A DNA stretch of 64,000 nucleotides. It comes from Myxococcota bacterium. Its GTDB lineage: Bacteria; Myxococcota_A; Polyangia; Polyangiales; Sandaracinaceae. The stretch's first letter is position 1. Each line of letters begins with the position of its first letter. This document shows, in pieces, positions 33,056 through 49,214 of the stretch. Made by a program: the position numbers and the translations under genes. The notes under the pieces were generated by a model. The model had not been told where the DNA came from. It was given only the letters and a program-made list of their open reading frames with translations, and searched no databases. The stretch lies in assembly GCA_036149055.1 (NCBI GenBank), contig JAYZQJ010000078.1, positions 1-64,000 on the forward strand, read 5' to 3'.

Positions 33056-33940
33056 TCACCGCCGGCTGCGAGCCCGGATGATCATCGCGGTCAGGTTCAG
33101 GGTGAAGGTGATGACCAGGAGCACGAGCACGGTGCCGAAGAGGCTCCCCCGCGCGGCGTCGACGTTCGGGCTCTGCGTGCTGAGCGCGTACACGTGGTAG
33201 CCGAGGTGCATGTACATGTCGCGGAGGTCGGTCGGCAGCTGCGGGAGGTAGCTCGCCGCGCCGGTGAAGATGATCGGCGCGACCTCGCCCGCCCCGCGGC
33301 TGACCGCGAGGATGATGCCGGTGAGGATGCCGCCCTTGGCGTTGGGCACGGCGATCCGGAAGACGGTCTGGAAGCGCGTCGCGCCGAGCGCCAGCGCCGC
33401 CGAGCGCAGGTCCTGGGGGACGGACCGGAGCGCCTCCTCGGTGGTGACGATGACCACCGGGAGGGTGAGCACCGCCAGGGTCAGCGAGCTCCAGAGCACG
33501 GCCGGCTTCCCCCACACCGGCTGGCCGTCGTAGAGCAGGGCGTCCACGCCGCGGCCGAGGAAGAGGATGAAGAAGCCGAGCCCGAAGAGGCCGAAGACGA
33601 TCGACGGGACGCCCGCGAGGTTGACCACCGCCGCGCGCACCCAGGCCGCCAGGCGGGAGCCCCGGGGCGCGTACTCCGCGAGGTAGACGCCGGTGAGGAT
33701 GCCGACCGGGACGACCGCGACGGTCATCAGGAGCGTCATCAGCACCGTGCCCCAGATGGCGGGCCAGATGCCGCCGCCGACGAGGTCGCTGGACGGGCCC
33801 TCGGTGAGGAAGGTGGCGCTGATCGACGGCGCGCCGAGGATCGCGACCTGGCCGAGCACGACGAGCATGAGCGCGAGGACGAGCACGACGCTCGCGCCCG
33901 TGGCCCCCGCGAGGAGGAGGTCGCCCTTGACCCACTTCAC
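33056..33940 (-). CDS. pstA: Phosphate ABC transporter permease PstA
   Basis: GGIWPAIWGT; NLAGVPSIVFGLFG; LALGATRFQT; SRGAGEVAP; GTGA overlap with pstC. Confidence 0.95.
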   Translation of the reverse strand: MKWVKGDLLLAGATGASVVLVLALMLVVLGQVAILGAPSISATFLTEGPSSDLVGGGIWPAIWGTVLMTLLMTVAVVPVGILTGVYLAEYAPRGSRLAAWVRAAVVNLAGVPSIVFGLFGLGFFILFLGRGVDALLYDGQPVWGKPAVLWSSLTLAVLTLPVVIVTTEEALRSVPQDLRSAALALGATRFQTVFRIAVPNAKGGILTGIILAVSRGAGEVAPIIFTGAASYLPQLPTDLRDMYMHLGYHVYALSTQSPNVDAARGSLFGTVLVLLVITFTLNLTAMIIRARSRR

Positions 33941-34965
33941 GCCTCGACCCCCGCGGTCAGGCGACGGTGGAGGCGCGCGATGACGGCCGCGCCGAGGCGG
34001 TTGAGCGCGAACGTGATGACGAACAGGAGCACGCCGAGGAGGAAGAGCACCCGCCAGTGAGGGTCGCCCTGCGCGACCTCGCCCAGCTCGGCGGCGATGG
34101 TCGCGGTCACCGTGCGCGCGCTGGTGGTCGGGTCGAAGAGCTCCATCACCGCGGCGTTGCCCGAGGCCATGAGCACGACCATCGTCTCGCCGATCGCCCG
34201 GCCGAAGCCGAGGATCACGGCGGCCGCGATGCCGGGGAGCGCAGCCGGGACGACGACGCGCAGGGTCGTCTGCCACTTGCGCGCGCCCAGGGCCATCGCC
34301 GCCTCGCTCAGCTCCCGGGGGACGGCGCGCAGGGCGTCTTCGCTGATGGTGAAGATCATCGGGATGACGGCGAGGCTCAGGCCGCACGCCGCGACGATGG
34401 CGTTCAGGCGGTAGGCCAGGCCGAAGGTCTCCTGCATCCAGGTCGCGAGCACGATGAGCGCGAAGAAGCCGAGCACGACGCTCGGGATCGAGGCGAGCAG
34501 CTCGAGCGCCGGCTTGATGACCTCCCGGAGCGAGCGCGGCGCGTACTGCGAGACGAAGATCGCGGCGCCCACCCCCGCCGGCACGCTGATGAGCATGGCC
34601 AGGACGGTGACCTTGAGGGTGCCGACGAGCAGCGGCACGACGTTCAGCTTCGAGGGCGTGCCCACCGGCTGCCAGACGAAGACCGCCTCCGCGTAGCCCG
34701 CCCACTGCTTCGGCAGGAACAGCGCGTCGAGGCCGCCGATCTCTCCGTGCAGCTCGGTCTCCCAGAGGAGCGGCAGCGCCTCCTTCAGGATGAAGACGAA
34801 GATGAGCACGATGGCCGCGATGGCGACGAAGGCCACCCCGGTGATCGCCTTCTCCGCCAGGCGGTGCGCGAGCGGGGTCTCGAAGCCCTGCCCGAGCGGG
34901 ACGACGGCGCGCGGCGCGCCCGGCTCCGAGAGCTCTCGCTCGCCGGATCGCGCGCCGCGGCTCAT
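33937..34965 (-). CDS. pstC: Phosphate ABC transporter permease PstC
   Basis: ELLASIPSVVLGF; ISEDALRAVP; GRAIGETMVVLMASGN. Confidence 0.95.
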   Translation of the reverse strand: MSRGARSGERELSEPGAPRAVVPLGQGFETPLAHRLAEKAITGVAFVAIAAIVLIFVFILKEALPLLWETELHGEIGGLDALFLPKQWAGYAEAVFVWQPVGTPSKLNVVPLLVGTLKVTVLAMLISVPAGVGAAIFVSQYAPRSLREVIKPALELLASIPSVVLGFFALIVLATWMQETFGLAYRLNAIVAACGLSLAVIPMIFTISEDALRAVPRELSEAAMALGARKWQTTLRVVVPAALPGIAAAVILGFGRAIGETMVVLMASGNAAVMELFDPTTSARTVTATIAAELGEVAQGDPHWRVLFLLGVLLFVITFALNRLGAAVIARLHRRLTAGVEA

Positions 34966-35819
34966 CGCGTGACTCGCTCCGCGGTGCGCACGCGGGGCAG
35001 CGGGTAGTAGCCCGCCGCCTCCACCAAGCTCTGGCCCCGAGGGCCGCGGGTCCAGGCGATGAAGTCGGCCGCGGTGCCGCGCGGCTCGCCGGCCGTGTAG
35101 ACGAGGAGCGGCCGCGCCAGCGGATAGCGACCGTCGAGCGCGCTCTGGGCGCTCGGCGCCACCGGGTCGCCGCCCTCGGTGGCGATCGGCACCGCGCGCA
35201 CGCCCCCGCCGAAGCCGATCCCCCCGTAGCCGATGCCGCTCGGGTCGCGGCTCACCGCGTGGATCACCGCCGCCGTGCCCGGGAGCGTCTGGGCCTCGCT
35301 AGCGAAGTCGCGGTCCTCGAGCACGCGCTCCTTGAAGTAGGCGTAGGTGCCCGAGCTGTTCTCCCGGCTGTAGAGCACGATGCGCCCGGGCGGGCCGCCG
35401 ACGTCGCGCCAGTCGTCGATGCGCCCGCGGTAGATCGCCGAGAGCTGGGCCAGCGTGAGCGACGCGACGGGGTTGTCCTCGTGCACGTAGACGGCGACGG
35501 CGTCGATCGCGACCGGCACGGCGTGCGCTTCGGCGTCCCGGTTGCGCCGGAGGTTGCGTCGCTCGCGCTCGGTGATGGTCCGGCTCGCGGTGGCGATGTC
35601 GGTCGTCCCGTTGATCAGCGCGGCGAGGCCGGTGCCGCTCCCCCCGCCGGTGACCTGGATGGTCGCCTCGGGGTGGGCGCGCATGTAGTGCTCGGCCCAG
35701 CGCTGGGTGAGGATCACCATGGTGTCGGATCCCCGGACGCTGACACGTCCGGCGGCGTCGCCGTCGCCCGAGCAGGCGGCGGCGGAGAGCGCGAGCAGGA
35801 TCGCGAGCAGGGTCCTCAT
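34962..35819 (-). CDS. pstS: Phosphate-binding lipoprotein PstS
   Basis: Lipobox AAAC; RGSDTM; GGGSGTG; ATASR; SRENSSGT; YPLARPL. Confidence 0.93.
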   Translation of the reverse strand: MRTLLAILLALSAAACSGDGDAAGRVSVRGSDTMVILTQRWAEHYMRAHPEATIQVTGGGSGTGLAALINGTTDIATASRTITERERRNLRRNRDAEAHAVPVAIDAVAVYVHEDNPVASLTLAQLSAIYRGRIDDWRDVGGPPGRIVLYSRENSSGTYAYFKERVLEDRDFASEAQTLPGTAAVIHAVSRDPSGIGYGGIGFGGGVRAVPIATEGGDPVAPSAQSALDGRYPLARPLLVYTAGEPRGTAADFIAWTRGPRGQSLVEAAGYYPLPRVRTAERVTR

Positions 35820-35944
35820 GGGCTCCCTCGACGTACGACACATCCGATCACGGGGAAGCCCGGCATATGTAACAGGATGGAGAAATCTTGCGAGTGCATC
35901 TGCGCGCATCGGCGTGGTCGGATGCCACCGTTTTTGGTATCTCC

Positions 35945-38383: not shown

Positions 38384-39351
38384 GGCGCCTCCTCCCCGTG
38401 CTCTGCCTGCTGCTGTCGACCGGGTGCCTCGACATCGACTTCGACTCGCCGCACCTCATCCAGTACGAGCGCATCATCGGCCTCCGCGCCGAGCCGCCCG
38501 AGGCGCAGTTCGGCGAGGACGTGGTCTTCACCGCGCTGGTGGTCGACGAGACCGGCGCCAACCTGGCGATGGAGCCCGACGTCGAGCTGCGGTGGTCGGT
38601 CTGCGTGAGCCTGGCCGCCATCGTGCGCGGCGCGGGGCTCGGCGCCGGGAGCGACCTCGAGGACGACTGCCGCGAGGGCGGCGACGACCTCGTCCGGTTG
38701 AGCGCCGAGGGCCTGCCCCCCGACTCGGCCCGGCTGCCCGGCGCGGCGGTGGTCGCGGTCATCGCCGAGCTCATGGCCCCCGGCGGCGGCGGCGGCCTGC
38801 CCTCGATCCCCGGCCTCGATCCGGGCAGCGCGCGGTCGCTGCTGACGGTGATCGCCGAGGTCGGCGTGCCGCTCAGCGTGCGCCTCGAGGTCTACCGGCA
38901 GGGCGAGCTGATCCAGACCGGCTTCAAGCGCTTCGCGATCGTGATGCGCGAGGACCCGACCACGAACCCGCCGCCGCCGCGCTTCGCGCTCGACGGCGCC
39001 TTCGTGAGCGCGCGGGGCGAAGGCGACCCCACCCGGTGCGTCCCCGAGGAGGGCCCGATCGTGCTCGACGCCGGCGCCGAGATCGCGCTCGACCCCGACG
39101 ACGACGAGGAGGCCTGGCTCGAGACCTACCCCGTCTTCAACTTCGACGGCGAGGTGCAGGAGAACGAGGAGAGCGCCTACTACTCCTGGTTCGTCACCGC
39201 CGGCTCCATGGCCGACGACATCACCCAGCGCCCCGAGGACGACACCGCCTGGACGACCCCCGAGGAGCCCGGCACCTACCCGCTCTGGCTCGTCGTGCGC
39301 GACGGCCACCTCGGGATGTCGTGGTGCCAGGTCGACGTGGAGGTGCGCTAG
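38380..39351 (+). CDS. Lipoprotein partner of the TonB-dependent receptor
   Basis: ATGA coupling; lipobox STGC; LRAEPPE; YSWFVTAG; LWLVVRDGHLG. Confidence 0.8.
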   Translation: MRRLLPVLCLLLSTGCLDIDFDSPHLIQYERIIGLRAEPPEAQFGEDVVFTALVVDETGANLAMEPDVELRWSVCVSLAAIVRGAGLGAGSDLEDDCREGGDDLVRLSAEGLPPDSARLPGAAVVAVIAELMAPGGGGGLPSIPGLDPGSARSLLTVIAEVGVPLSVRLEVYRQGELIQTGFKRFAIVMREDPTTNPPPPRFALDGAFVSARGEGDPTRCVPEEGPIVLDAGAEIALDPDDDEEAWLETYPVFNFDGEVQENEESAYYSWFVTAGSMADDITQRPEDDTAWTTPEEPGTYPLWLVVRDGHLGMSWCQVDVEVR

Positions 39352-40229
39352 GCGTTCGGGCCGAAGCTCGTGATGATGTAGCCGCCGCTGCGCTCGTCCT
39401 TGCTCAGCTCGAGAAGGCCCTTCTTCTCGGCGTCCTCGAGCATCTCGCTGAAGGTGCGGTAGCCGTGGAAGCGCTCGGAGAAGTTCGGGCGCTTGCGCTT
39501 GAGGGTCTGCTTGACCATCGAGCCCCAGAGGTGGCTGTCGCGGTCCTGGAAGAGCGCCTCGACGGTGTCGAGGATGTGGTCGAGCCCCTCCTGCTGGCGC
39601 TCCTGCTCCTCCTCCTTCGACAGCTCCTTGTCCTTCGGGCTGGCGTCGGACTGGGTGACGGCGGGCTTGTCGTCCTTCTTGGGCGCCGGCCGGTCGTTGT
39701 TGCTCGACTTCTTGCGCGGCTTCTTGGCGTGCCGCTTGTGGCCGCGCTTCGCCCGCACGAGGTCGTCGTAGTAGATGAACTCGTCGCAGTTCTCGATCAG
39801 TAGATCGCTGCTCGAGTTCTTCACCCCGAGCCCGATGACGATCTTGTCGTTCTCGCGCAGCTTGCTGACGAGCGGCGAGAAGTCGCTGTCGCCGGAGATG
39901 ATGACGAAGACGTCGATGTGCCGCTTCGTGTAGCAGAGGTCGAGCGCGTCCACGACGAGGCGGATGTCGGCGCTGTTCTTCCCCGAGTAGCTGACGTGCG
40001 GGATCTCGATCATCTCGAAGCCCGCCTCGTGCATCGCCCGCTTGCTGCTCTTGTAGCGGTCCCAGTCCGAGTAGGCCTTCTTGACGACGATCTTGCCCTT
40101 GTCGAGCAGCCGCTCGAGCACGAGCTCGATGTCGAAGTCCTTGTAGTTCGCGTCCCGCACGCCGATGGCCACGTTCTCGAAGTCGGCGAAGATGGCCAGG
40201 TTGGGCGCGGAGTCGTAGTTGTCGCTCAA
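39348..40229 (-). CDS. NYN (LabA/DUF88) ribonuclease-domain protein with a C-terminal OST-HTH/LOTUS domain
   Basis: FADFEN; GKNSADIRLVVD; SGDSDFSPL; CDEFIYY; KPNFSERFHGYRTFS-like LOTUS. TTG 40229 after GGAGA. Confidence 0.92.
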   Translation of the reverse strand: MSDNYDSAPNLAIFADFENVAIGVRDANYKDFDIELVLERLLDKGKIVVKKAYSDWDRYKSSKRAMHEAGFEMIEIPHVSYSGKNSADIRLVVDALDLCYTKRHIDVFVIISGDSDFSPLVSKLRENDKIVIGLGVKNSSSDLLIENCDEFIYYDDLVRAKRGHKRHAKKPRKKSSNNDRPAPKKDDKPAVTQSDASPKDKELSKEEEQERQQEGLDHILDTVEALFQDRDSHLWGSMVKQTLKRKRPNFSERFHGYRTFSEMLEDAEKKGLLELSKDERSGGYIITSFGPNA

Positions 40230-40289
40230 AGCGCGTTCTCCAATGGAAGAGTTCGAAGTCAGGTAGGTCGCCGCCACGCGACCGTCAAA

Positions 40290-41069: not shown

Positions 41070-42206
41070 ATGAGCGCCCCCCATGACCTCTTCGCCGCCT
41101 GCGCCCCCGGTCTCGAGCCCCTCCTCGAGGCCGAGCTGTCGTCGCTCGGCACCCTGTCCCCCAAGGCCGTGCCCGGCGGGGTCGTCTTCGGCGGGCACCG
41201 ACGCGTGCTCTACCGGGTGAACCTCGAGAGCGGGCTCGCGAGCCACGTGCGCGTGCGGGTCGGCCGCTTCCTCGCGCGCTCCTTCGAGGAGCTGGAGCGC
41301 GAGGCGGCCCAGATCCCCTGGGAGCGCTACCTGAGCCCCGGGGTGCCCCGCCGCTTCCGGGTCACCGCTCGCAAGAGCCGGCTCCATCACACCGACGCGC
41401 TCGCCGAGCGCCTCTCGAAGATCATCGCGATCCGCCTCGGCGATCACCTCGCGGTGCCCGATCCGGGCGGCGTTCGGGTGCACCTCCGGATCGAGCGCGA
41501 TCGCGCGGGCTGCTCGATCGACAGCTCCGGGGAGCCCCTCCACCGCCGCGGCTGGCGGACCCACGTGGGCCCGGCGCCGCTCCGCGAGGACCTCGCGCGG
41601 GCCCTGATCGTGGCCAGCGGCTGGGAGCCGGGCCAGGCGCTCTGGGATCCGCTCTGCGGCAGCGGCACGATCGCGATCGAGGCGGCGACGATGGCGCGCG
41701 GCATGGCGCCGGGCCGCATGCGGGGCTTCGACTTCGAGCGCACCCCGCTCCTGCACGCGCCGACCTGGGACGCGGTGAAGGCCGAGGCCCGGGATCGCGT
41801 CGGCGAGAGCGCGTCGAGCTTCGGCGCCAGCGACCGCGACGAGGCGGTGCTGCAGGCGGCCCGCGCCAACGCGGAGCGCGCCGGGGTCGAGATCGCGTTC
41901 GAGCGCTCCAGCGTCACCCAGGCCGTCCGCCCCGAGGGCCCGCGCGGCGCGCTGGTCACCAACCCGCCCTACGGGCATCGCCTCGGCGAGGGCGAGGACC
42001 TGCGCCCGCTCTACGACGCGCTCGGCCGGCGGGCCGAGGAGCTGCCGCCCGGGTGGAGCGCCGCGCTCTACGCGACCGATCGCAAGCTCGGGCACCGCGT
42101 GGGGCCCGGGCTCACGACCGCCTTCGTCGCCGACGCGGGCGGCCTCAAGGTGCGGGCCCTGGTCAGAAGCCCTGCTGAGAGCCGACCAGCAGACGCACCG
42201 AGCTGA
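41070..42206 (+). CDS. THUMP-domain class I SAM-dependent RNA methyltransferase (RlmL-like)
   Basis: CAPGLEPLL; DSSGEPLHRRGWR; APLREDLA; DPLCGSGTIAIEA; TNPPYG. Confidence 0.9.
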   Translation: MSAPHDLFAACAPGLEPLLEAELSSLGTLSPKAVPGGVVFGGHRRVLYRVNLESGLASHVRVRVGRFLARSFEELEREAAQIPWERYLSPGVPRRFRVTARKSRLHHTDALAERLSKIIAIRLGDHLAVPDPGGVRVHLRIERDRAGCSIDSSGEPLHRRGWRTHVGPAPLREDLARALIVASGWEPGQALWDPLCGSGTIAIEAATMARGMAPGRMRGFDFERTPLLHAPTWDAVKAEARDRVGESASSFGASDRDEAVLQAARANAERAGVEIAFERSSVTQAVRPEGPRGALVTNPPYGHRLGEGEDLRPLYDALGRRAEELPPGWSAALYATDRKLGHRVGPGLTTAFVADAGGLKVRALVRSPAESRPADAPS

Positions 42207-43767
42207 CCTGCGCGCCCTGGTCGAAGGGCTCCGATCCGAAGGCGAGCAGGATGTTGAACGACTGGTCGCGATCCCCGATCGAGCGGAGGCCGAAGCCGAA
42301 GCTCATCCGGAGTCGCTCGACGTGGAAGTTCGACAGGCGCTCCTCGAAGACGTTGCCCACCGAGAAGTGCAGCGAGCCGTCCAGCCAGACCCAGACCGGG
42401 TAGCGGTACTCGAGGGTCGCCACGAGCGCGCTCCGGTCGACGAGCTGGTTCTGGATGAAGCCGCTCATGATCATCGGATCGCCGCCGAGGTTGACCTGCT
42501 CGAGCCACGGGACCGGCGCCGTGCCGAGCGGGTCGGCGAAGCGGGCGAGGCCGTAGAGCCCGAAGATCCGGTTGGCGCCGACGTCGAGGAAGCCGCCGAT
42601 GGCGCCGCCGTACTGGATCCAGCGGTTCTCCACCGGTTCGTTCAGGTCGAAGCCGAGCCCCGTGTAGGCCTCGACGCGCACCCCGTGGCCCGCCGCCGGG
42701 CGCGGCTCGCGGGTGTCGATGACCACGTCGAGGCGCTGACGGTAGGCGGTGTAGCCCTCGAACCCGGGCGGCAGCTCGTACCAGCCCTGATCGTCGACCG
42801 CCTGCTGGAGGGTCGGGTCGCCGCGTCGGCCCCAGTTGTAGCCGTCGGGCGCGAACTGGTTCCAGATCACGCCGGCCCGGAACCGGACCTCGCTCTCGCG
42901 CCAGGGCATGAAGCGGAAGTCGAGCCGCCCCTCGAGGTAGTCGCGGCGGTACCGCGAGCGCTGCGAGCGCTCCGAGTCGTAGCCGGTGCCCTGGTAGACG
43001 AAGTCCGGGCGGTGGAGCGCGTCGAAGGTCAGGCCGAGCTCGGTCTCCTCGCTGAGCCGGAGCCGGTCGCTGATGGTGCCGCGCAGCCAGTCGATCCCGC
43101 CGAACGCGGCCGACACGCGGAAGAAGTTGCCCTCGAGGACGTCCGGCGCGTTGTGCCAGAAGAAGAGCCCGACGCTCGGCTGGAAGCCGAAGTCGAAGAA
43201 GGCGGTCGGCACCAGGCCGGCGCGTCGCTCCTCGAAGGTGAAGAAGTCGATGAGCAGCGCGGTCCAGTTCTCGCGCTCCGCGGTGGTCAGGAACCACCCG
43301 AGCGGCTGACGGATCACGTACTCGAAGACCAGGTGGATCGGGAAGAAGAGGATGCGGGGGACCCAGAGCAGGACCTCGCCCGCGTCCGGCCCCGGCTCGG
43401 CGCGCCCGTCGTAGTCGGGGAGCTCGCGGCGCGCGATGGTGGGCTCGGTCGGCTCGTCGCCCTCCTCCGCTTCGCCCTCCTCCGCTTCGTCCTCGGCCTC
43501 GTCGTCCTCGTCGTCAGCGGCCTCGTCGTCTCCGGTCCGGAGCTCGGCCTGGTCCTCGTCGACCTCGACCGGCGCCTCCTCGACCGGGATCGGCTCCTCG
43601 GGGTCCGGGTCGCCGTCGGCGCCCGAGTCCTCGACCGTCTCGACCGGGAGCGGGATCTCGCCGCCGTCGTCGGCGTCCTGCGCGGCCGCGGAAGTGCTGA
43701 TGGCGAAGAGCGCCGTGCTCGCGGCCAGGAGGGCTGCGAGACGGAGGTTGAAGAGCGCGGGCTTCAT
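42163..43767 (-). CDS. Omp85 (BamA/TamA)-like outer-membrane beta-barrel without recognisable POTRA domains
   Basis: Signal peptide; acidic linker; amphipathic strands; LGG...SGF..NQLVDRSALVATLEYRYP resembling the loop-6 region; SFGFGLR; C-terminal Phe. Confidence 0.7.
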   Translation of the reverse strand: MKPALFNLRLAALLAASTALFAISTSAAAQDADDGGEIPLPVETVEDSGADGDPDPEEPIPVEEAPVEVDEDQAELRTGDDEAADDEDDEAEDEAEEGEAEEGDEPTEPTIARRELPDYDGRAEPGPDAGEVLLWVPRILFFPIHLVFEYVIRQPLGWFLTTAERENWTALLIDFFTFEERRAGLVPTAFFDFGFQPSVGLFFWHNAPDVLEGNFFRVSAAFGGIDWLRGTISDRLRLSEETELGLTFDALHRPDFVYQGTGYDSERSQRSRYRRDYLEGRLDFRFMPWRESEVRFRAGVIWNQFAPDGYNWGRRGDPTLQQAVDDQGWYELPPGFEGYTAYRQRLDVVIDTREPRPAAGHGVRVEAYTGLGFDLNEPVENRWIQYGGAIGGFLDVGANRIFGLYGLARFADPLGTAPVPWLEQVNLGGDPMIMSGFIQNQLVDRSALVATLEYRYPVWVWLDGSLHFSVGNVFEERLSNFHVERLRMSFGFGLRSIGDRDQSFNILLAFGSEPFDQGAQVSSVRLLVGSQQGF

Positions 43768-45470
43768 CGTCCGGGCGCCTCCACGCTGGAGGGCCGCTCG
43801 AGCCCGACGAGCTGGATGTCACCGGGCCCCTTGGCGTACAGGTGGACCCGCGCCGGCAGGGTGGTCTCGCGTCCCGGGGTCTGGGCGATCACGTCCACCA
43901 CGACGTAGGTCGGGTCGGCCGCGCTCGCCGCCACGTCGGGCAACGCCGCGCACACGTAGTGCTCGGCGGAGCGCGTCAGGCCGGGGCTCTCGACCGGCTC
44001 GAGGGCGTCCCCCGCCCACGCCCGCGCCGAGTAGCGCCGGGTCGCGCGGTCACGGATTCCGCTCCATGTGGCCAGGTCCTGCATACAGAGCTCGCTGCCG
44101 CCCTCCTCTCGGGGACGTACATAGGGCCACGTCAACGGTGACAAGCGCGTCAGGTAGCGCTCGAGGATCCGGTCACGGCGCCCCGCGAGGATGCGCGCCA
44201 GCTCCTGCTCGACCACCGGATCGTGAAAACGTCCCTGCGCCGCGAGCGCCGCCAGGTGAGGGTCTCGGAAGCGCGCGATGATGCGCGCCATCCAGGCCGC
44301 GTCGCGCTCGGTGTGGCGGTCGAACGAGGGGTTGGGGTAGCCCGGGCGCCAGGCGTCGGGCTCGAACCGGAAGACGTCGTAGTAGCCGAGCGTGCGGCCG
44401 GCCGGGCCCTCCTGGGCGACGAACCAGGGGCGCGCCGCGAGGTCGAGGGTCAGCCAGTCGGTGACCACGTGCTCGAAGTCGAGGTAGCCCGAGTGTCCGA
44501 AGCGGCGGACGAGGTACTCCCACTCGTGCACGATGCCGAAGCAGTCGCCGAAGTCGATCATGTAGTGGCGCACGTAGCCGTCGTCGGCGCCGTCTTCGGT
44601 CATCCACGCGGCGAGCGTGTTCTCCTGCCGCGAGTCGATGTGGTCGGTCCACGCGGCGAGCACGACCATGCCCCGGGTCTCGCGGCGGTGCTGGTGCGGG
44701 ACGACGTCGTTCGGGTCGTCGGACCGGACGCCCTCGTAGCGCCAGGGGCTGATCGGCCGGCCCTCGATGAAGCGGCTGACGCTCGCCCGGTAGCGCCCGT
44801 CCGGGAGCTGGAGCGCCGCCTCCATCACCGCGTCGATGTGATGCTGCTCGAGCGGCTCCTCGACCCCGTTCGTGCGCTCGATGGTGGCCTCGGGATCGAC
44901 GACGAGGATGTCGCGGTCGAAGTGCACGACGCGGTTGCAGGGCGTCCAGTAGCCGGCCGCGTGGTAGATGGCCGCGCCGATCGTGTCGGCGGCCCCCGGG
45001 CGCCACGGCTGCCGGGTGCCTTCGGTCTTGAGCAGGTAGCGCTGCCCGTTCGCGTCGCGGATCTGGAAGCCCGGGTTGGCGCCGTCGGGCTTGCCGCCGA
45101 CGATGGTCCACGGCCCCGGGATGTCGAAGCGCTCGCCGCACGCCCCCTGGGCGACCTGCTCGGGGCTCATCAGCCGCCGGCTCAGCCGGTTCTGGAACCA
45201 GCTCGAGTCGGGGACCTCGTCGACCGAGTTGACGTTCACCGCCTCGCGCGAGGGCTCGAAGAGCCAGAACTCGCTCACCGGACGGAAGAAGGTGTTGTCC
45301 GCCCCGTCCCACATGTAGGGGGAGTAGAAGGACTCCGGCATCGGCCGGAAGCGGCGCTGATCGGCGTCCTCCCACATCACCTCGGCGAGCGGGTACCGGC
45401 GCAGGCCGGTGGTGGCGCAGCCGGAGAGCGCGGCGATCAGCAGAGCGAGCAGGGGGGCGGGTCGGGTCAC
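43764..45470 (-). CDS. Uncharacterised lipoprotein with atypical protein-kinase-like (HipA/PI3K-like) motifs
   Basis: GTG 45470; lipobox LSGC; GGKPDGANPGF...RYLLK; DHIDSRQEN; YMIDFGDCFG. The gene itself is well supported; the function is inferred. Confidence 0.7.
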   Translation of the reverse strand: MTRPAPLLALLIAALSGCATTGLRRYPLAEVMWEDADQRRFRPMPESFYSPYMWDGADNTFFRPVSEFWLFEPSREAVNVNSVDEVPDSSWFQNRLSRRLMSPEQVAQGACGERFDIPGPWTIVGGKPDGANPGFQIRDANGQRYLLKTEGTRQPWRPGAADTIGAAIYHAAGYWTPCNRVVHFDRDILVVDPEATIERTNGVEEPLEQHHIDAVMEAALQLPDGRYRASVSRFIEGRPISPWRYEGVRSDDPNDVVPHQHRRETRGMVVLAAWTDHIDSRQENTLAAWMTEDGADDGYVRHYMIDFGDCFGIVHEWEYLVRRFGHSGYLDFEHVVTDWLTLDLAARPWFVAQEGPAGRTLGYYDVFRFEPDAWRPGYPNPSFDRHTERDAAWMARIIARFRDPHLAALAAQGRFHDPVVEQELARILAGRRDRILERYLTRLSPLTWPYVRPREEGGSELCMQDLATWSGIRDRATRRYSARAWAGDALEPVESPGLTRSAEHYVCAALPDVAASAADPTYVVVDVIAQTPGRETTLPARVHLYAKGPGDIQLVGLERPSSVEAPGR

Positions 45471-45605
45471 GAGATGGCTCCACCTAGCTCCAAACGGGCG
45501 CCGGAGCACGCGGGCGGCGGCGATGGTGAAACATCTCCGGCTCTGCGGTAAAGAGACGCCAGGATCCGGGGGACAAGCATCCGGGGGGGCAAGCGAGGTG
45601 ACGAG

Positions 45606-47105
45606 TTGAGCGAGAGCGATTCCTTCGGCGAGCTCCGGGCCCACGTCCGGCGCATCGAGACCCTCTCCGGGATCGAGGGCACCCTCGACTGGGACCAGCA
45701 GACGATGATGCCGCCCAAGGCGGCGGCGCTCCGGGGCGAACAGCAGGCCCTCGTCGCGGGGCTGGCGCACGAACACATCTCGGATCCTCGCATCGAAGGC
45801 TGGCTGGCGGACCTGGAGGGCACCGAGGACCCGGTGCGCGCGGCCGCCGAGAGGAACCTGGGGCGGACCTACCGCCGTGAGAAGCGGGTGCCGGCGGATC
45901 TGGTCGACGCGCTCGCCCGCGCCAAGAGCGAGGGCTTCGGCGTCTGGGTCGCCGCCAAGAAGTCCGACGACTGGGCGAGCTTCCAGCCGAAGCTCGAGCA
46001 GCTCGTCTCGCTCTCCCGCCAGCGCGCGGCCGCCATCGACCCCGATCGCCACCCCTACGAGGTGCTGCTCGAGGAGTTCGACCCGGGCACCACGGTGGCC
46101 TCGCTCCGCGACACCTTCGGCCGCCTCCGCGACGGCCTCGTGCCGCTGCTCGAGGCGATCGCCGGCGCCCCCGCGCTGCCCGCGGTGGACCGCACCTTCG
46201 ACGTCGCCGGGCAGGAGGCGCTGCACCGCGAGGTCGCGGCCGCGCTCGGCTACGACTTCGAGGCCGGTCGGCTCGACCCCGCCGAGCACCCCTTCACCAG
46301 CGGCATGGGCCCCGGCGACGTGCGCATCACCACCCGCCTCGCCCCCGACGACTTCTTCGGCGGCCTCGGCAGCACGGTGCACGAGACCGGCCACGCCCTC
46401 TACGAGCAGGGCCTGCCCCACGCGCATCGCGGGACCACGGTGGCGGAGGCGGCGAGCTTCGGGCTGCACGAGTCCCAGTCCCGCTTCTGGGAGAACACCA
46501 TCGGGCGCTCCGAGGCCTTCTTCCGCTGGCTCGCCCCGAAGCTGCCGGGCCACTTCGAGGGCGCGACCCCCGACGCGTCGGCGCTCTACCGCGCGGCCAA
46601 CCGGGTCGAGCCCAGCCTGATCCGGGTCGAAGCGGACGAGGTCACCTACAACCTGCACATCGTCGTGCGGTTCGAGCTGGAGCTCGCGCTCTTCGAGGGG
46701 ACGCTCGCGGTCGCCGACCTGCCGGCGGCGTGGAACGAGAAGTACGCCGAGTACCTCGGGGTCACCCCGCCCGACGACACCCGCGGCGTGCTCCAGGACG
46801 TGCACTGGTCGAGCGGCGCGTTCGGCTACTTCCCGAGCTACACCCTCGGCAACCTCTACGCCGCGTCGATGGGCCGTGCGATCGAAGCCGCGCTCCCGGA
46901 TCTCTGGGACCGGGTGGCCGACGGAGACTTCGCGCCGATCCTCGGCTGGCTCCGCGAGCGCGTCCACGCGCGCGGCCACCTGCTCGAAGCCCCCGAGATC
47001 GTGCGGGAAGCGGTCGGAGAGCGGGACCACGTCGCCGACCTGCTCGGCTACCTGTGGAGCCGCCACGGCGCCCTCTACGGGGTGTCGCGGCCCGAAGGCG
47101 TGTAA
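45606..47105 (+). CDS. M32 carboxypeptidase (Taq-type)
   Basis: WDQQTMMP; HPF; DVRITTR; HETGHALYEQG; HESQS; IRVEADE; LQDVHW; GYFPSY. Confidence 0.96.
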   Translation: MSESDSFGELRAHVRRIETLSGIEGTLDWDQQTMMPPKAAALRGEQQALVAGLAHEHISDPRIEGWLADLEGTEDPVRAAAERNLGRTYRREKRVPADLVDALARAKSEGFGVWVAAKKSDDWASFQPKLEQLVSLSRQRAAAIDPDRHPYEVLLEEFDPGTTVASLRDTFGRLRDGLVPLLEAIAGAPALPAVDRTFDVAGQEALHREVAAALGYDFEAGRLDPAEHPFTSGMGPGDVRITTRLAPDDFFGGLGSTVHETGHALYEQGLPHAHRGTTVAEAASFGLHESQSRFWENTIGRSEAFFRWLAPKLPGHFEGATPDASALYRAANRVEPSLIRVEADEVTYNLHIVVRFELELALFEGTLAVADLPAAWNEKYAEYLGVTPPDDTRGVLQDVHWSSGAFGYFPSYTLGNLYAASMGRAIEAALPDLWDRVADGDFAPILGWLRERVHARGHLLEAPEIVREAVGERDHVADLLGYLWSRHGALYGVSRPEGV

Positions 47106-47114
47106 GCTGACGGC

Positions 47115-49214
47115 GTGAAGGGGTGGTGGCGCTGGCTGTCGCCCGACGTGCCGCGCGACGACCCGGAGGAGGCGACGGCGGCGCGGCGGGCGGCGGGGCT
47201 GTTCGCGATCGTGACGATCGCGTGGCTGCTCTTCGCCGCCCAGTACGCGCTGCAAGGTCGGTGGCTGACCGTCGGGATCGACGTCACCGTCGCCGCCCTC
47301 ACCGCCCTCGGCCGCAGCTGGACCCTCCGGGATCCGAGCCTGCGCCGCGTGGCCACCGGCACCGCGCTCGTCACCCTGCTCTCGCTCGTGGGGCTGGTCG
47401 GCGCGGCGATCCTCAGCGGACAGGACCGGGCGATGGCGGTCTGGTACATCGCCATCGCGCCGCTCTTCCTCGGCTACGTGGTCGGCCCGGGGAGCGCGCT
47501 CGGGGCGGCGGCGCTCGCCTCGCTGGGCATCGCGCTCGTGCACGCCTCGACCGCGGTCGTGACGGTGGAGCCCGAGTTCGTGGCCGACGGCTCCGAGCGC
47601 ATGCTCGGCCAGATCCTGCTCGCCTGGGTGGTGGCCGGCTTCGCCTGGACGGCGCGCAAGGCGATGGACACCCAGGTGAGCACCATCGAGCGACAGCGCG
47701 CGATCGCGCTCCGGAGCGCGGCCGCGCTCGAGACGGCGCGGGATCAGGCGATGACCGCGGACCGCGCCAAGAGCGAGTTCCTGGCCAACGTCAGCCACGA
47801 GCTGCGCACGCCCCTCACCGCCATCCTCGGCATGGCCGACCTGCTCGCCGACGACACCCTGGCGGGCGACCAGCGGCACCGGGTCGAGCGGATCCAGGAG
47901 GCCGGGCGCACGCTGCTCGCGCTCCTCGACGACGTGCTCGACCTGTCGCGGGTCGAGGCGGATCGGCTCGAGCTGTCGCCCGAGCCCTTCGAGCTGCGGG
48001 CCGAGGTCGAGCGCGTGGTCGAGATGCTCGCGCCGAAGGCCGCGCGCGGCGTCTCGCTCGAGCTGGAGCTCGAGGGCGAGGTGCCCGAGTGGGTGCGGGT
48101 GGACGGGCGGCGCCTCCGGCAGATCCTCGTCAACCTGGTCGGCAACGCGGTGAAGTTCACCACCAAGGGCCAGGTCACCGTCCGGGTGACGACCGAAGGC
48201 GCCCGCACCCGGCTCGCGGTCGAGGACACCGGCATCGGCATCCCGCAGGCGGCGCAGGCCCGCATCTTCCAGCCGTTCCAGCAGGTCGACGCGTCGACCA
48301 GCCGGCGCTACGGCGGCACCGGGCTCGGCCTGGCGATCAGCGCGCGCCTGGTCCGCTCGCTCGGCGGTGACCTCCAGCTCGAGAGCCGGGAGGGCGAGGG
48401 CAGCGTCTTCCACTTCACGCTCGCGCTCGAGCCGTGCGCCCCCGGTCAGGCCCCCCGCGCCGCCGACGACCTCACCCCCATCGCCGAGCAGCGCCCGCTC
48501 TCGATCCTGGTGGCCGAGGACAACCCGGTGAACCGCGAGGTGATCACCGGCCTGCTCGAGCGGCTCGGCTACGCGCCGGTCGTGACCGAGAACGGGGTCG
48601 AGGCGGTCGCCGCCCTCGATCTGCAGCCCTTCGACGTGGCGCTCGTGGACATCCAGATGCCGCTCATGGACGGCATGGCGGTGGCGCGCGCGGTCTCGGA
48701 CCGCCCCGACCGCCCGGCGCTGATCGCGCTGACCGCCAACGTGATGGCGCACCAGCGCGAGCGTTATCTCCGCGCGGGCTTCGAGCGGGTGCTGCCCAAG
48801 CCCATCGATCCGCGGGCGCTGCGCGACGCGCTGCTGGATCGCGAGGGCCCGGGCGAAGCGCGCAGGGCCGTCACCGGCTCGTTCGACGAGTCCCGCCTCG
48901 AGCCGCTCGAGAAGATCAGCGGCGATCGCTTCCCCACCCTGCTCGCCGCGCACGTCGACAACGGCGGCGCGCTGGTGACGGAGGCGCGCGAGGCGCTGGC
49001 GGCCGGCGACCTGGAGACGCTCGAGCGCGCCGCCCACTCGCTGAAGTCGAGCAGCGCGCAGTTCGGGTCGATGCGGGTCAGCGACTGCTGCGCGGCCCTG
49101 GAGCACGCCGCCGAGCGCGGCGATCGGGCGGCGGCCGAGGAGGCGATGACGGCCCTCGAGGCGGCCTGGGAGCGCGCCGCCGGCCGCCTCCGTTCACGGA
49201 TCGACGCCGCCTGA
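47115..49214 (+). CDS. Membrane hybrid histidine kinase (HisKA-HATPase-REC-Hpt)
   Basis: About 6 TM; FLANVSHELRTPL; NLVGNAVKFT; GGTGLGL; AEDNPVN...DIQMP; AHSLKSSS. Confidence 0.95.
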   Translation: MKGWWRWLSPDVPRDDPEEATAARRAAGLFAIVTIAWLLFAAQYALQGRWLTVGIDVTVAALTALGRSWTLRDPSLRRVATGTALVTLLSLVGLVGAAILSGQDRAMAVWYIAIAPLFLGYVVGPGSALGAAALASLGIALVHASTAVVTVEPEFVADGSERMLGQILLAWVVAGFAWTARKAMDTQVSTIERQRAIALRSAAALETARDQAMTADRAKSEFLANVSHELRTPLTAILGMADLLADDTLAGDQRHRVERIQEAGRTLLALLDDVLDLSRVEADRLELSPEPFELRAEVERVVEMLAPKAARGVSLELELEGEVPEWVRVDGRRLRQILVNLVGNAVKFTTKGQVTVRVTTEGARTRLAVEDTGIGIPQAAQARIFQPFQQVDASTSRRYGGTGLGLAISARLVRSLGGDLQLESREGEGSVFHFTLALEPCAPGQAPRAADDLTPIAEQRPLSILVAEDNPVNREVITGLLERLGYAPVVTENGVEAVAALDLQPFDVALVDIQMPLMDGMAVARAVSDRPDRPALIALTANVMAHQRERYLRAGFERVLPKPIDPRALRDALLDREGPGEARRAVTGSFDESRLEPLEKISGDRFPTLLAAHVDNGGALVTEAREALAAGDLETLERAAHSLKSSSAQFGSMRVSDCCAALEHAAERGDRAAAEEAMTALEAAWERAAGRLRSRIDAA

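Follow-up and report, generated by a model that had tools for sequence, protein, structure and literature searches.

PlpD (patatin-Omp85) and Metallo-Omp85 are described proteins in which an enzyme domain is tied to an Omp85 barrel. The available part of the PlpD work has the enzyme domain remaining periplasmic and affecting membrane lipids (PMC11116518), and Metallo-Omp85 carries a PF00149 domain (PMC4104836). The noNterm Omp85 proteins (Heinz and Lithgow 2014; Leptospira paralogues) are 16-stranded barrels that lack POTRA domains. Here, we report a kinase-like lipoprotein gene and a POTRA-less Omp85-type barrel gene lying together on a 64,000-nucleotide stretch of DNA (the window) from a Myxococcota bacterium of the Sandaracinaceae (assembly GCA_036149055.1, contig JAYZQJ010000078.1, positions 1 to 64,000). 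With an NTT-family carrier, they make up a real and conserved envelope module that is apparently unpublished; of the three core genes, two are in the window. Our preferred reading, to which we give a probability of about 0.5, is that the kinase faces the periplasm under its own barrel, is fed by the carrier, and likely acts on an outer-membrane lipid or protein.

The pair differs from each of these systems. PlpD and Metallo-Omp85 are single-chain, ATP-independent hydrolases, whereas the present enzyme is predicted to be a transferase and usually forms a lipoprotein of its own, and PlpD has a POTRA domain that this barrel lacks. A gene of the PF00149 family adjoins one kinase copy in this genome; the domain was absent from the kinase and barrel proteins themselves and from 12 longer homologues. 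Leptospiral noNterm barrels keep both lid-lock motifs, as far as the accessible part of PMC11358297 goes, whereas the present barrels mostly do not. The word "kinase" is absent from the main texts of two noNterm Omp85 papers (PMC4104836 and PMC11358297).

The periplasm has long been regarded as devoid of ATP (bioRxiv 10.64898/2026.03.22.713542), and a 2020 review, in the portion available, gives the ATP route across the inner membrane as unknown and E. coli as lacking an ATP/ADP translocase (PMC7432876). Lig E is a comparable case of an exported ATP-dependent enzyme whose ATP source is open, but it has no dedicated gene neighbours, and environmental ATP has been proposed for it (bioRxiv 10.64898/2026.03.22.713542). 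For the kinase described here, NTT-family carriers encoded outside this window are a candidate answer to the ATP-source puzzle, as gene linkage suggests. A parallel exists in the secretory pathway, where an ATP/ADP exchanger of the endoplasmic reticulum and Golgi supplies nucleotide for Fam20C.

The kinase-like gene (43764..45470; like all features of the pair, on the minus strand) encodes 568 amino acids (aa), with a predicted atypical kinase-like fold and a C-terminal Ig/fibronectin-III-like domain. It starts with GTG at 45470 and stops with TGA at 43766-43764, and a Shine-Dalgarno-like GGAG, read from the sequence, is found 8-11 bases 5' of the start (45478..45481). The lipoprotein signal peptide (45417..45470) ends in the lipobox with Cys18 (45428-45417); of 117 close homologues, 111 have Cys in this column, as do all six copies of the kinase in this genome. 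Many distant homologues lack the lipobox Cys, yet present an ordinary signal-like N-terminus, as judged by eye.

The kinase-like domain comprises approximately residues 111-443 (44142..45140), according to the alignment ranges to CtkA, PI4KIIa, and CotH. It contains a Gly-rich loop with invariant Lys127 and Gly130 (45081..45098); Lys148 at the end of strand 144-148 (45027..45029), which would be the ATP-binding beta3 lysine; Asp162 in helix 157-172 (44985..44987), probably the alphaC acidic residue; the catalytic-loop motif HxDxRxxN with Asp279 and Asn284 (44619..44645); and a DFG-type metal-binding motif with Asp306 (44535..44564). A preliminary description, made from the letters of this DNA, had reported the lipobox, Gly-loop, lysine, HxDxxxxN, and DFG, and all of them held up, with coordinates right to 1-2 bases. 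All 117 close homologues have K127, K148, D279, N284, and D306; of 121 homologues with 28-61% identity, 108, 113, 118, 116, and 119, respectively, keep them. Thus, the D, N, and DFG residues that the preliminary description had proposed to check are conserved in all close homologues and in 116-119 of the 121 distant ones. At position 162, an acidic residue (Asp or Glu) is found in 117/117 close and 106/121 distant homologues. In the structure model, K148, D162, D279, N284, and D306 are located on the expected secondary-structure elements. To judge from the alignments, the conservation of the motif residues is more than chance. The family also has invariant residues of its own: Asp252, His259, Arg262, Arg263, Arg266, His302, Asp390, and Trp393.

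The kinase model, built on the 117 homologues, reached a pLDDT of 94.8 and a pTM of 0.93. When compared with 48,161 solved chains, atypical kinases were 14 of the top 15 matches (Z 9.1-13.7). CtkA was matched with Z 13.7 (root-mean-square deviation 3.8, 228 aligned residues), followed by Fam20C (13.3), PI4KIIa (13.0), Hydra Fam20 (12.5), CotH (12.1), actin-fragmin kinase (10.9), MavQ (10.8), and HipA (10.3); the best non-kinase scored 9.7. Foldseek filled its top four places with Fam20C and PI4KIIa, as weak matches (E 5e-4). The C-terminal beta-sandwich (approximately residues 441-560, 43791..44150) resembled fibronectin-III-like domains at Z 6-7, and its Cys462 and Cys507 are invariant among close homologues. 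The kinase fold that had been suggested from the motifs is therefore what the predicted structure presents. We predict that the lipoprotein is an atypical member of the protein-kinase-like superfamily, of the Fam20/PI4K/CtkA/CotH type, with putative phosphotransfer activity.

Some proteins with kinase-like folds, such as SelO and SidJ, perform adenylylation or ligation instead. A periplasmic, carrier-fed enzyme transferring nucleotides in this way would agree with the 8-14% identity to any kinase compared and with the invariant family-specific cluster (Asp252 ... Trp393), which has no assigned role. Nevertheless, the nearest folds are phosphotransferases and the order of Lys, Asp-Asn, and Asp is canonical, so we regard such chemistry as improbable.

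Among exported kinases, Fam20C/Fam20B and CotH resemble this protein in predicted fold, export signal, and conserved Cys pairs (possible disulfides). They show no sequence match, and the protein reported here is lipid-anchored and has an Ig-like tail and an Omp85 partner. Moreover, CotH lacks the DFG motif, according to the part of PMC12189002 available, whereas this kinase keeps it. CtkA, PI4KII-alpha, MavQ, HipA/HipT, and actin-fragmin kinase also share the predicted fold (Z 10-14). None of these five is known to have a lipobox or a barrel partner, unlike this kinase. They all act in a cytosol, either that of their own cell or that of a host. Because their substrates include both proteins and lipids, the fold does not fix the substrate.

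The kinase lies outside curated families. Pfam and NCBIfam profile scans returned zero families at E<=1 for either the kinase or the barrel protein; the kinase stayed below threshold for the Fam20C, CotH, HipA, and PI3/4-kinase Pfam families, and a PDB sequence search gave nothing significant for it. The nearest named Atlas clusters scored 0.78-0.80. The family is large: of 8,000 candidates scored, 1,916 belonged to it, and at 50% identity it forms 2,486 clusters. Zero homologues were found in the plasmid collection searched. Its closest named relatives are Sandaracinaceae, with identities up to 76%; in the cultured Sandaracinus amylolyticus, the kinase is 56% and the barrel 47% identical. Nine proteins of about 1160 aa (P0393-P0401), one of them from a named Acidobacteriota, have the kinase fused to a C-terminal region of about 600 aa without a Pfam match; in the two inspected, P0393 and P0398, the beta3 Lys and catalytic Asp are apparently lost.

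The barrel gene (42163..43767) encodes 534 aa. Its start overlaps the kinase stop in the ATGA at 43764-43767, which suggests translational coupling and agrees with the preliminary description. The protein has a signal peptide (helix 5-26 in the model), an acidic unstructured linker with 48% Asp/Glu (residues 30-110, 43438..43680) whose length varies among homologues, a conserved helical segment at the usual POTRA place (residues 129-176, 43240..43383), and a 16-stranded beta-barrel with a degenerate lid-lock and a terminal Phe (residues 183-534, 42166..43221). Signal peptide, linker, helix in the POTRA place, and terminal Phe had all been anticipated, and model and sequence bear them out. Foldseek matched the barrel model to BamA, TamA, and Sam50 at E 1e-10. 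PF01103 was assigned to 73 of 120 barrel homologues among the matches listed, the query itself being without it, and the terminal Phe is present in 97 of 107 barrels.

With its 16 strands and C-terminal aromatic residue, the modelled barrel belongs to the Omp85/TpsB superfamily. It does not have the features of the BamA/TamA/TpsB insertases and translocases: the POTRA domain is missing from the model, where helices 129-176 and the unstructured linker stand instead, and the lid-lock is degenerate. In the part of PMC11358297 available, the lid-lock of Omp85 proteins consists of the Arg of a loop-6 RG(F/Y/W) motif and the Asp of a strand-13 FxDxG motif. The loop-6 Arg is present in 51 of 107 barrels and absent from the query, and in 100 of 107 the strand-13 Asp is replaced by Ala, Ser, or Gly.

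We surveyed 80 genome loci of close relatives and, for a distant subfamily whose kinases share roughly 30-38% identity with that of the query, 79 loci from metagenomes. A co-oriented barrel lay within 700 bases of the kinase in 62 of the 80 genome loci (45 upstream, 17 downstream), and of the 65 loci that extend 1.5 kb or more to either side, 53 had a barrel. In the distant set, clustering placed a barrel beside the kinase in 59 of 79 loci, and the five examined all carried Pfam Omp85. Another barrel profile, derived from these distant loci and used for the de-replicated barrel counts, raised this to 70 of 79, a circular figure. In the reverse direction, a hand count across 301 genomes of the phylum found a kinase match no more than 1.5 kb away for 34 of 44 barrel matches (E<=1e-40); of the ten unlinked ones, several were located at contig ends. 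This genome contains five further kinase copies (contigs C69, C4, C89, C208, and C88), all with the lipobox Cys and the catalytic set. Three have a whole barrel as neighbour, C69 has only a 117-aa barrel stub, and C4 has none; the C88 copy is followed by a metallophosphoesterase-like gene.

One fusion protein, P0277, combines the kinase with a barrel from the same subfamily and lacks a second signal peptide. The kinase attaches to the N-terminal end of the barrel, which is the periplasmic end in known Omp85 proteins. A search for longer forms gave 12 proteins with zero in-frame kinase-barrel fusions, and there were no fused frames in the 159 loci. Three candidate fusions were set aside: P0402 looks like a frameshifted read-through, and P0283 (kinase and PAP2) and P0297, also frameshift read-throughs by appearance, were left uncounted. 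Because of the gene linkage and the one fusion, kinase and barrel form a dedicated pair at the level of genes; their physical contact seems probable. The adjacency and fusion survey thus bears out the expected link to Omp85-like genes. That two unrelated neighbours or chance motifs explain the locus is very improbable: neither protein matches a curated family, as chance would allow, but linkage in both gene orders, the fusion, the reverse linkage, and the invariant motifs refute it.

Neighbour clustering identified one more recurrent family, the NTT/TLC carriers (PF03219 matches); compared with solved ADP,ATP carriers, linked members gave E 5e-36 and 5e-26. A single-domain carrier was found within 6 kb in 27 of the 80 genome loci and either form (single-domain or HEAT-fused) in 30 of 80, versus 0.28 expected from this genome's carrier density. 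In the distant set, the single-domain carrier was found in 20 of 79 loci and either form in 34 of 79, and in 13 of the 14 loci that have 4 kb on both sides. Ten arrangements with a carrier are spread over the kinase tree, and clustering at 60% identity left a carrier in 33 of 73 clusters. The order carrier-kinase-barrel occurs in the clade nearest the query (L033, L034, L039, and L094). In L033 and L034, two kinase-barrel pairs diverge around one carrier, and next comes a DUF2252/APH-like gene whose product begins like a lipoprotein. At the level of whole genomes, a single-domain carrier was strongly matched in 32 of the 35 that bear the kinase and in 39 of the 266 others, at thresholds (kinase E<=1e-50, carrier E<=1e-60) chosen after viewing the tables and with at most 4-5 candidates scored per genome. 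We place no weight on a Fisher test of this contrast, because the genomes are kin.

In this genome, the one single-domain carrier is encoded on contig C283 and two HEAT-fused carriers on C128 and C14. The closest matches of the C283 carrier (L076 and L068, 55%) lie directly upstream of kinase genes. We considered whether the C283 carrier continued into a kinase gene across the contig end and ruled it out, as a dispersed repeat follows the carrier. This repeat of about 200 bases (C283:1-215) was matched 155 times, over 116 contigs; 118 matches lie no more than 400 bases from a contig end, and none lies in the window.

The carriers also accompany other exported enzymes. Among 40 carrier loci not seen beside this kinase, a signal-peptide dikinase was found in 13 and a second kinase-like family in 4; one or both occurred in 15 of 40, and the remainder had mixed neighbours. 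The dikinase forms part of a conserved row with a single-domain NTT, two exported serine beta-lactamase-fold proteins, and the signal-peptide dikinase itself, of about 980 aa (PF01326 and PF00391), in L158-L164, L166, and L168-L172 (e.g. L160:6100-14500). It is present in 14 of 301 genomes and lies within about 7 kb of a carrier in 13 of the 14. The second exported kinase-like family, of about 340 aa and recognized by motifs, likewise occurs in 14 of 301 genomes, among them the present one (C233:21113-22297; elsewhere L149, L166, L170, and L177). All 14 genomes have a carrier, which stands beside the gene in 4 of 14; we discounted this adjacency as parallel evidence, since the same four loci built the query. 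A profile comparison between this family and the kinase family of the window gave no significance.

NTT and NTT-HEAT-cNBD proteins of free-living bacteria have been described before (Major, Embley, Williams 2017). They share PF03219, the single-domain and HEAT-fused forms, and an adjacent cyclic-nucleotide-binding gene with the carriers found here. In the part of that work available (PMC5381601), the NTTs of free-living bacteria have no assigned function, and no exported kinase or barrel neighbour is named. Key NTT1 residues differ in our carriers: at the positions of NTT1 Lys155, Glu245, and Lys527, mapped by eye with one offset on a printed alignment, the main linked clade has Lys, Gly, and Asp in 21 of 23 members, and a minor clade, including the carrier of this genome, has Glu, Asp, and Lys. 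In Arabidopsis NTT1, the change of Lys527 to Glu abolished ATP binding and spared ADP binding (PMC3306366), and phosphate and the gamma-phosphate are reported to share one residue in the available part of PMC2606016. Because of the Asp at the Lys527 position and the Gly at the Glu245 position, the linked carriers are, by sequence, not NTT1-type ATP/ADP+Pi exchangers, and ADP or another nucleotide could be their cargo. We speculate that exchange without phosphate would be electrogenic and that the membrane potential would then favour ATP export.

In the mechanism we favour, kinase and barrel would both be exported, in line with their export signals, and the kinase, with a predicted fold and a catalytic set intact by conservation, would form one outer-membrane unit with the barrel. 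The barrel would serve as an anchor or scaffold in the manner of PlpD, without secreting the kinase. The carrier, an inner-membrane NTT-family protein whose gene neighbours the pair in many relatives but has other locations in this genome, would swap cytoplasmic ATP for periplasmic ADP, as its linkage suggests. We place the kinase on the periplasmic side because of the fusion order, the missing POTRA domain and lid-lock, and the PlpD precedent. Our guess for the substrate is an outer-membrane lipid or lipid-linked sugar, with an envelope protein nearly as likely. Phosphorylation might be reversed by PAP2 or metallophosphoesterase proteins, whose genes adjoin some kinase copies; in the 79 distant loci, PAP2 neighbours were found in 11 and membrane glycosyltransferases in 5. 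A lipid is favoured because of these PAP2 and glycosyltransferase neighbours and the action of PlpD on lipids, but the preference is weak because lipid kinases and protein kinases are both among the nearest folds.

The preliminary description had proposed that the barrel displays or serves the kinase. The two-gene module is supported; display is less likely, given the degenerate lid-lock and the fusion order. For display, the barrel would move the kinase to the surface in a two-partner-like manner, ATP would come from lysed prey or neighbours, and the carriers would import scavenged nucleotides. Known Omp85/TpsB proteins do assemble or translocate proteins, often with co-encoded partners (PMC11358297, in the part available), characterised NTTs import, as in parasites, the Ig-like tail fits a surface protein, and there is no carrier beside this kinase copy. 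Extracellular ATP also exists, and the exported ligase Lig E has been proposed to use it, but the measured level is about 25 nM (bioRxiv 10.64898/2026.03.22.713542). The barrel has no POTRA domain for receiving a passenger, its lid-lock is degenerate, and the distant relatives were recovered from metagenomes of soil, sediment, and water. An ATP level of about 25 nM is low for a kinase, and the tight linkage of the carrier to two unrelated exported ATP users fits supply more easily. Surface display is thus unlikely in our view, although it is the strongest competitor of a periplasmic, carrier-fed kinase.

Slightly less likely again is nucleotide sensing or salvage, in which the barrel would admit nucleotides, the kinase-fold protein would bind or convert them, and the carriers, together with cyclic-nucleotide-binding and HEAT partners and a Ser/Thr kinase of the cytoplasm, would import the product or relay a signal, with no stable phosphorylation of the envelope. 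NTT-HEAT fusions in 15 of 80 genome loci and 25 of 79 distant loci would suit it, as would the cyclic-nucleotide-binding genes (9) and cytoplasmic Ser/Thr kinases (19) in the 79 distant loci, and an Asp at the Lys527 position would suit ADP or AMP over ATP. However, the full catalytic set is kept at 30% identity, which exceeds the needs of a binding protein, and phosphatase genes recur nearby. Moreover, solved Omp85 barrels are shut at the outer face, according to the portion available of PMC4104836.

Several observations weigh against a periplasmic kinase fed by a carrier. The structural matches of the kinase are 8-14% identical, with Foldseek at E 5e-4, and were compared as whole folds rather than residue by residue. 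The genomes are kin, and counts overstate their independence; the P0277 fusion is one single-member cluster, on two contigs; and an intact barrel is missing at two of the six kinase copies of this genome. A carrier is absent from the window and from about 6-7 kb around all six copies, as well as from 25 of the 43 genome loci with 4 kb on both sides. A strong carrier match is missing from 3 of the 35 kinase genomes; conversely, of the 71 genomes with a carrier, 21 encode none of the three exported enzymes examined. The carrier residues are themselves adverse: of the 23 linked carriers, 21 carry Asp where NTT1 has Lys527 and Gly where it has Glu245, and the carrier of this genome keeps Lys at the 527 position, but has Glu at that of Lys155. 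Besides, the NTTs that have been characterised work in uptake, and for some the cargo is NAD or none could be detected (PMC5381601, in the part available).

Around the pair, profile scans identified an NYN-domain protein (39348-40277, minus strand), an M32 carboxypeptidase (45606-47105, plus strand), and a hybrid histidine kinase (47115-49214, plus strand), which recur beside the module only in close kin. A 1780-codon frame on the minus strand (43764-49106) contains the kinase gene and was rejected as a gene: it is an artefact because third-position GC, 0.90-0.98 from about 45500 down, falls to 0.69-0.80 upstream. The low values mark the upstream 1200 codons as a shadow, and this part overlaps real plus-strand genes. 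Neither a sigma-70 promoter nor an intrinsic terminator was found in 41900-45800, which is uninformative at 72% GC. Part of the stretch is contained in 13 RNA runs. In the best run, each of the 30 bins between 38500 and 49000 has contig coverage, and a single contig spans the junction of kinase and barrel; the flanking genes are covered too, however, and a DNA origin is possible. Further along the window (33056-35909), 6 kb from the barrel, are three genes that we take to resemble the PstS/PstC/PstA phosphate ABC set. PiT and PhoU-like neighbours occurred in 4 of the 79 distant loci, and the proximity of the Pst-like genes may be coincidence.

The preliminary description knew of no characterised function for such a pair, and we likewise found no description of one. 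In the literature covered, which included few subscription papers and no supplements, the kinase family, the pair, and the carrier link were not described; the tables of PMC4104836 and PMC5381601 may list some of these barrels or carriers without comment. If the carrier link holds, the system is of a new kind: its parts belong to known superfamilies, their combination is undescribed, and the kinase is outside curated families. If the link fails, the finding reduces to an enzyme-plus-Omp85 unit akin to PlpD.

The pair adds a large, uncurated kinase-fold family and a possible non-secretory role for POTRA-less Omp85 barrels. The module offers a candidate ATP exporter, consumer, and anchor, which makes periplasmic ATP supply and NTT function testable with three cloned genes. 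More tentatively, outward NTTs in several phyla of free-living Gram-negatives may supply periplasmic ATP for reversible phosphorylation of the outer membrane, by a kinase under its own Omp85 barrel that is opposed by PAP2 or metallo-phosphatases, and the carriers may also feed the dikinase. If true, this would be a bacterial counterpart to secretory-pathway phosphorylation.

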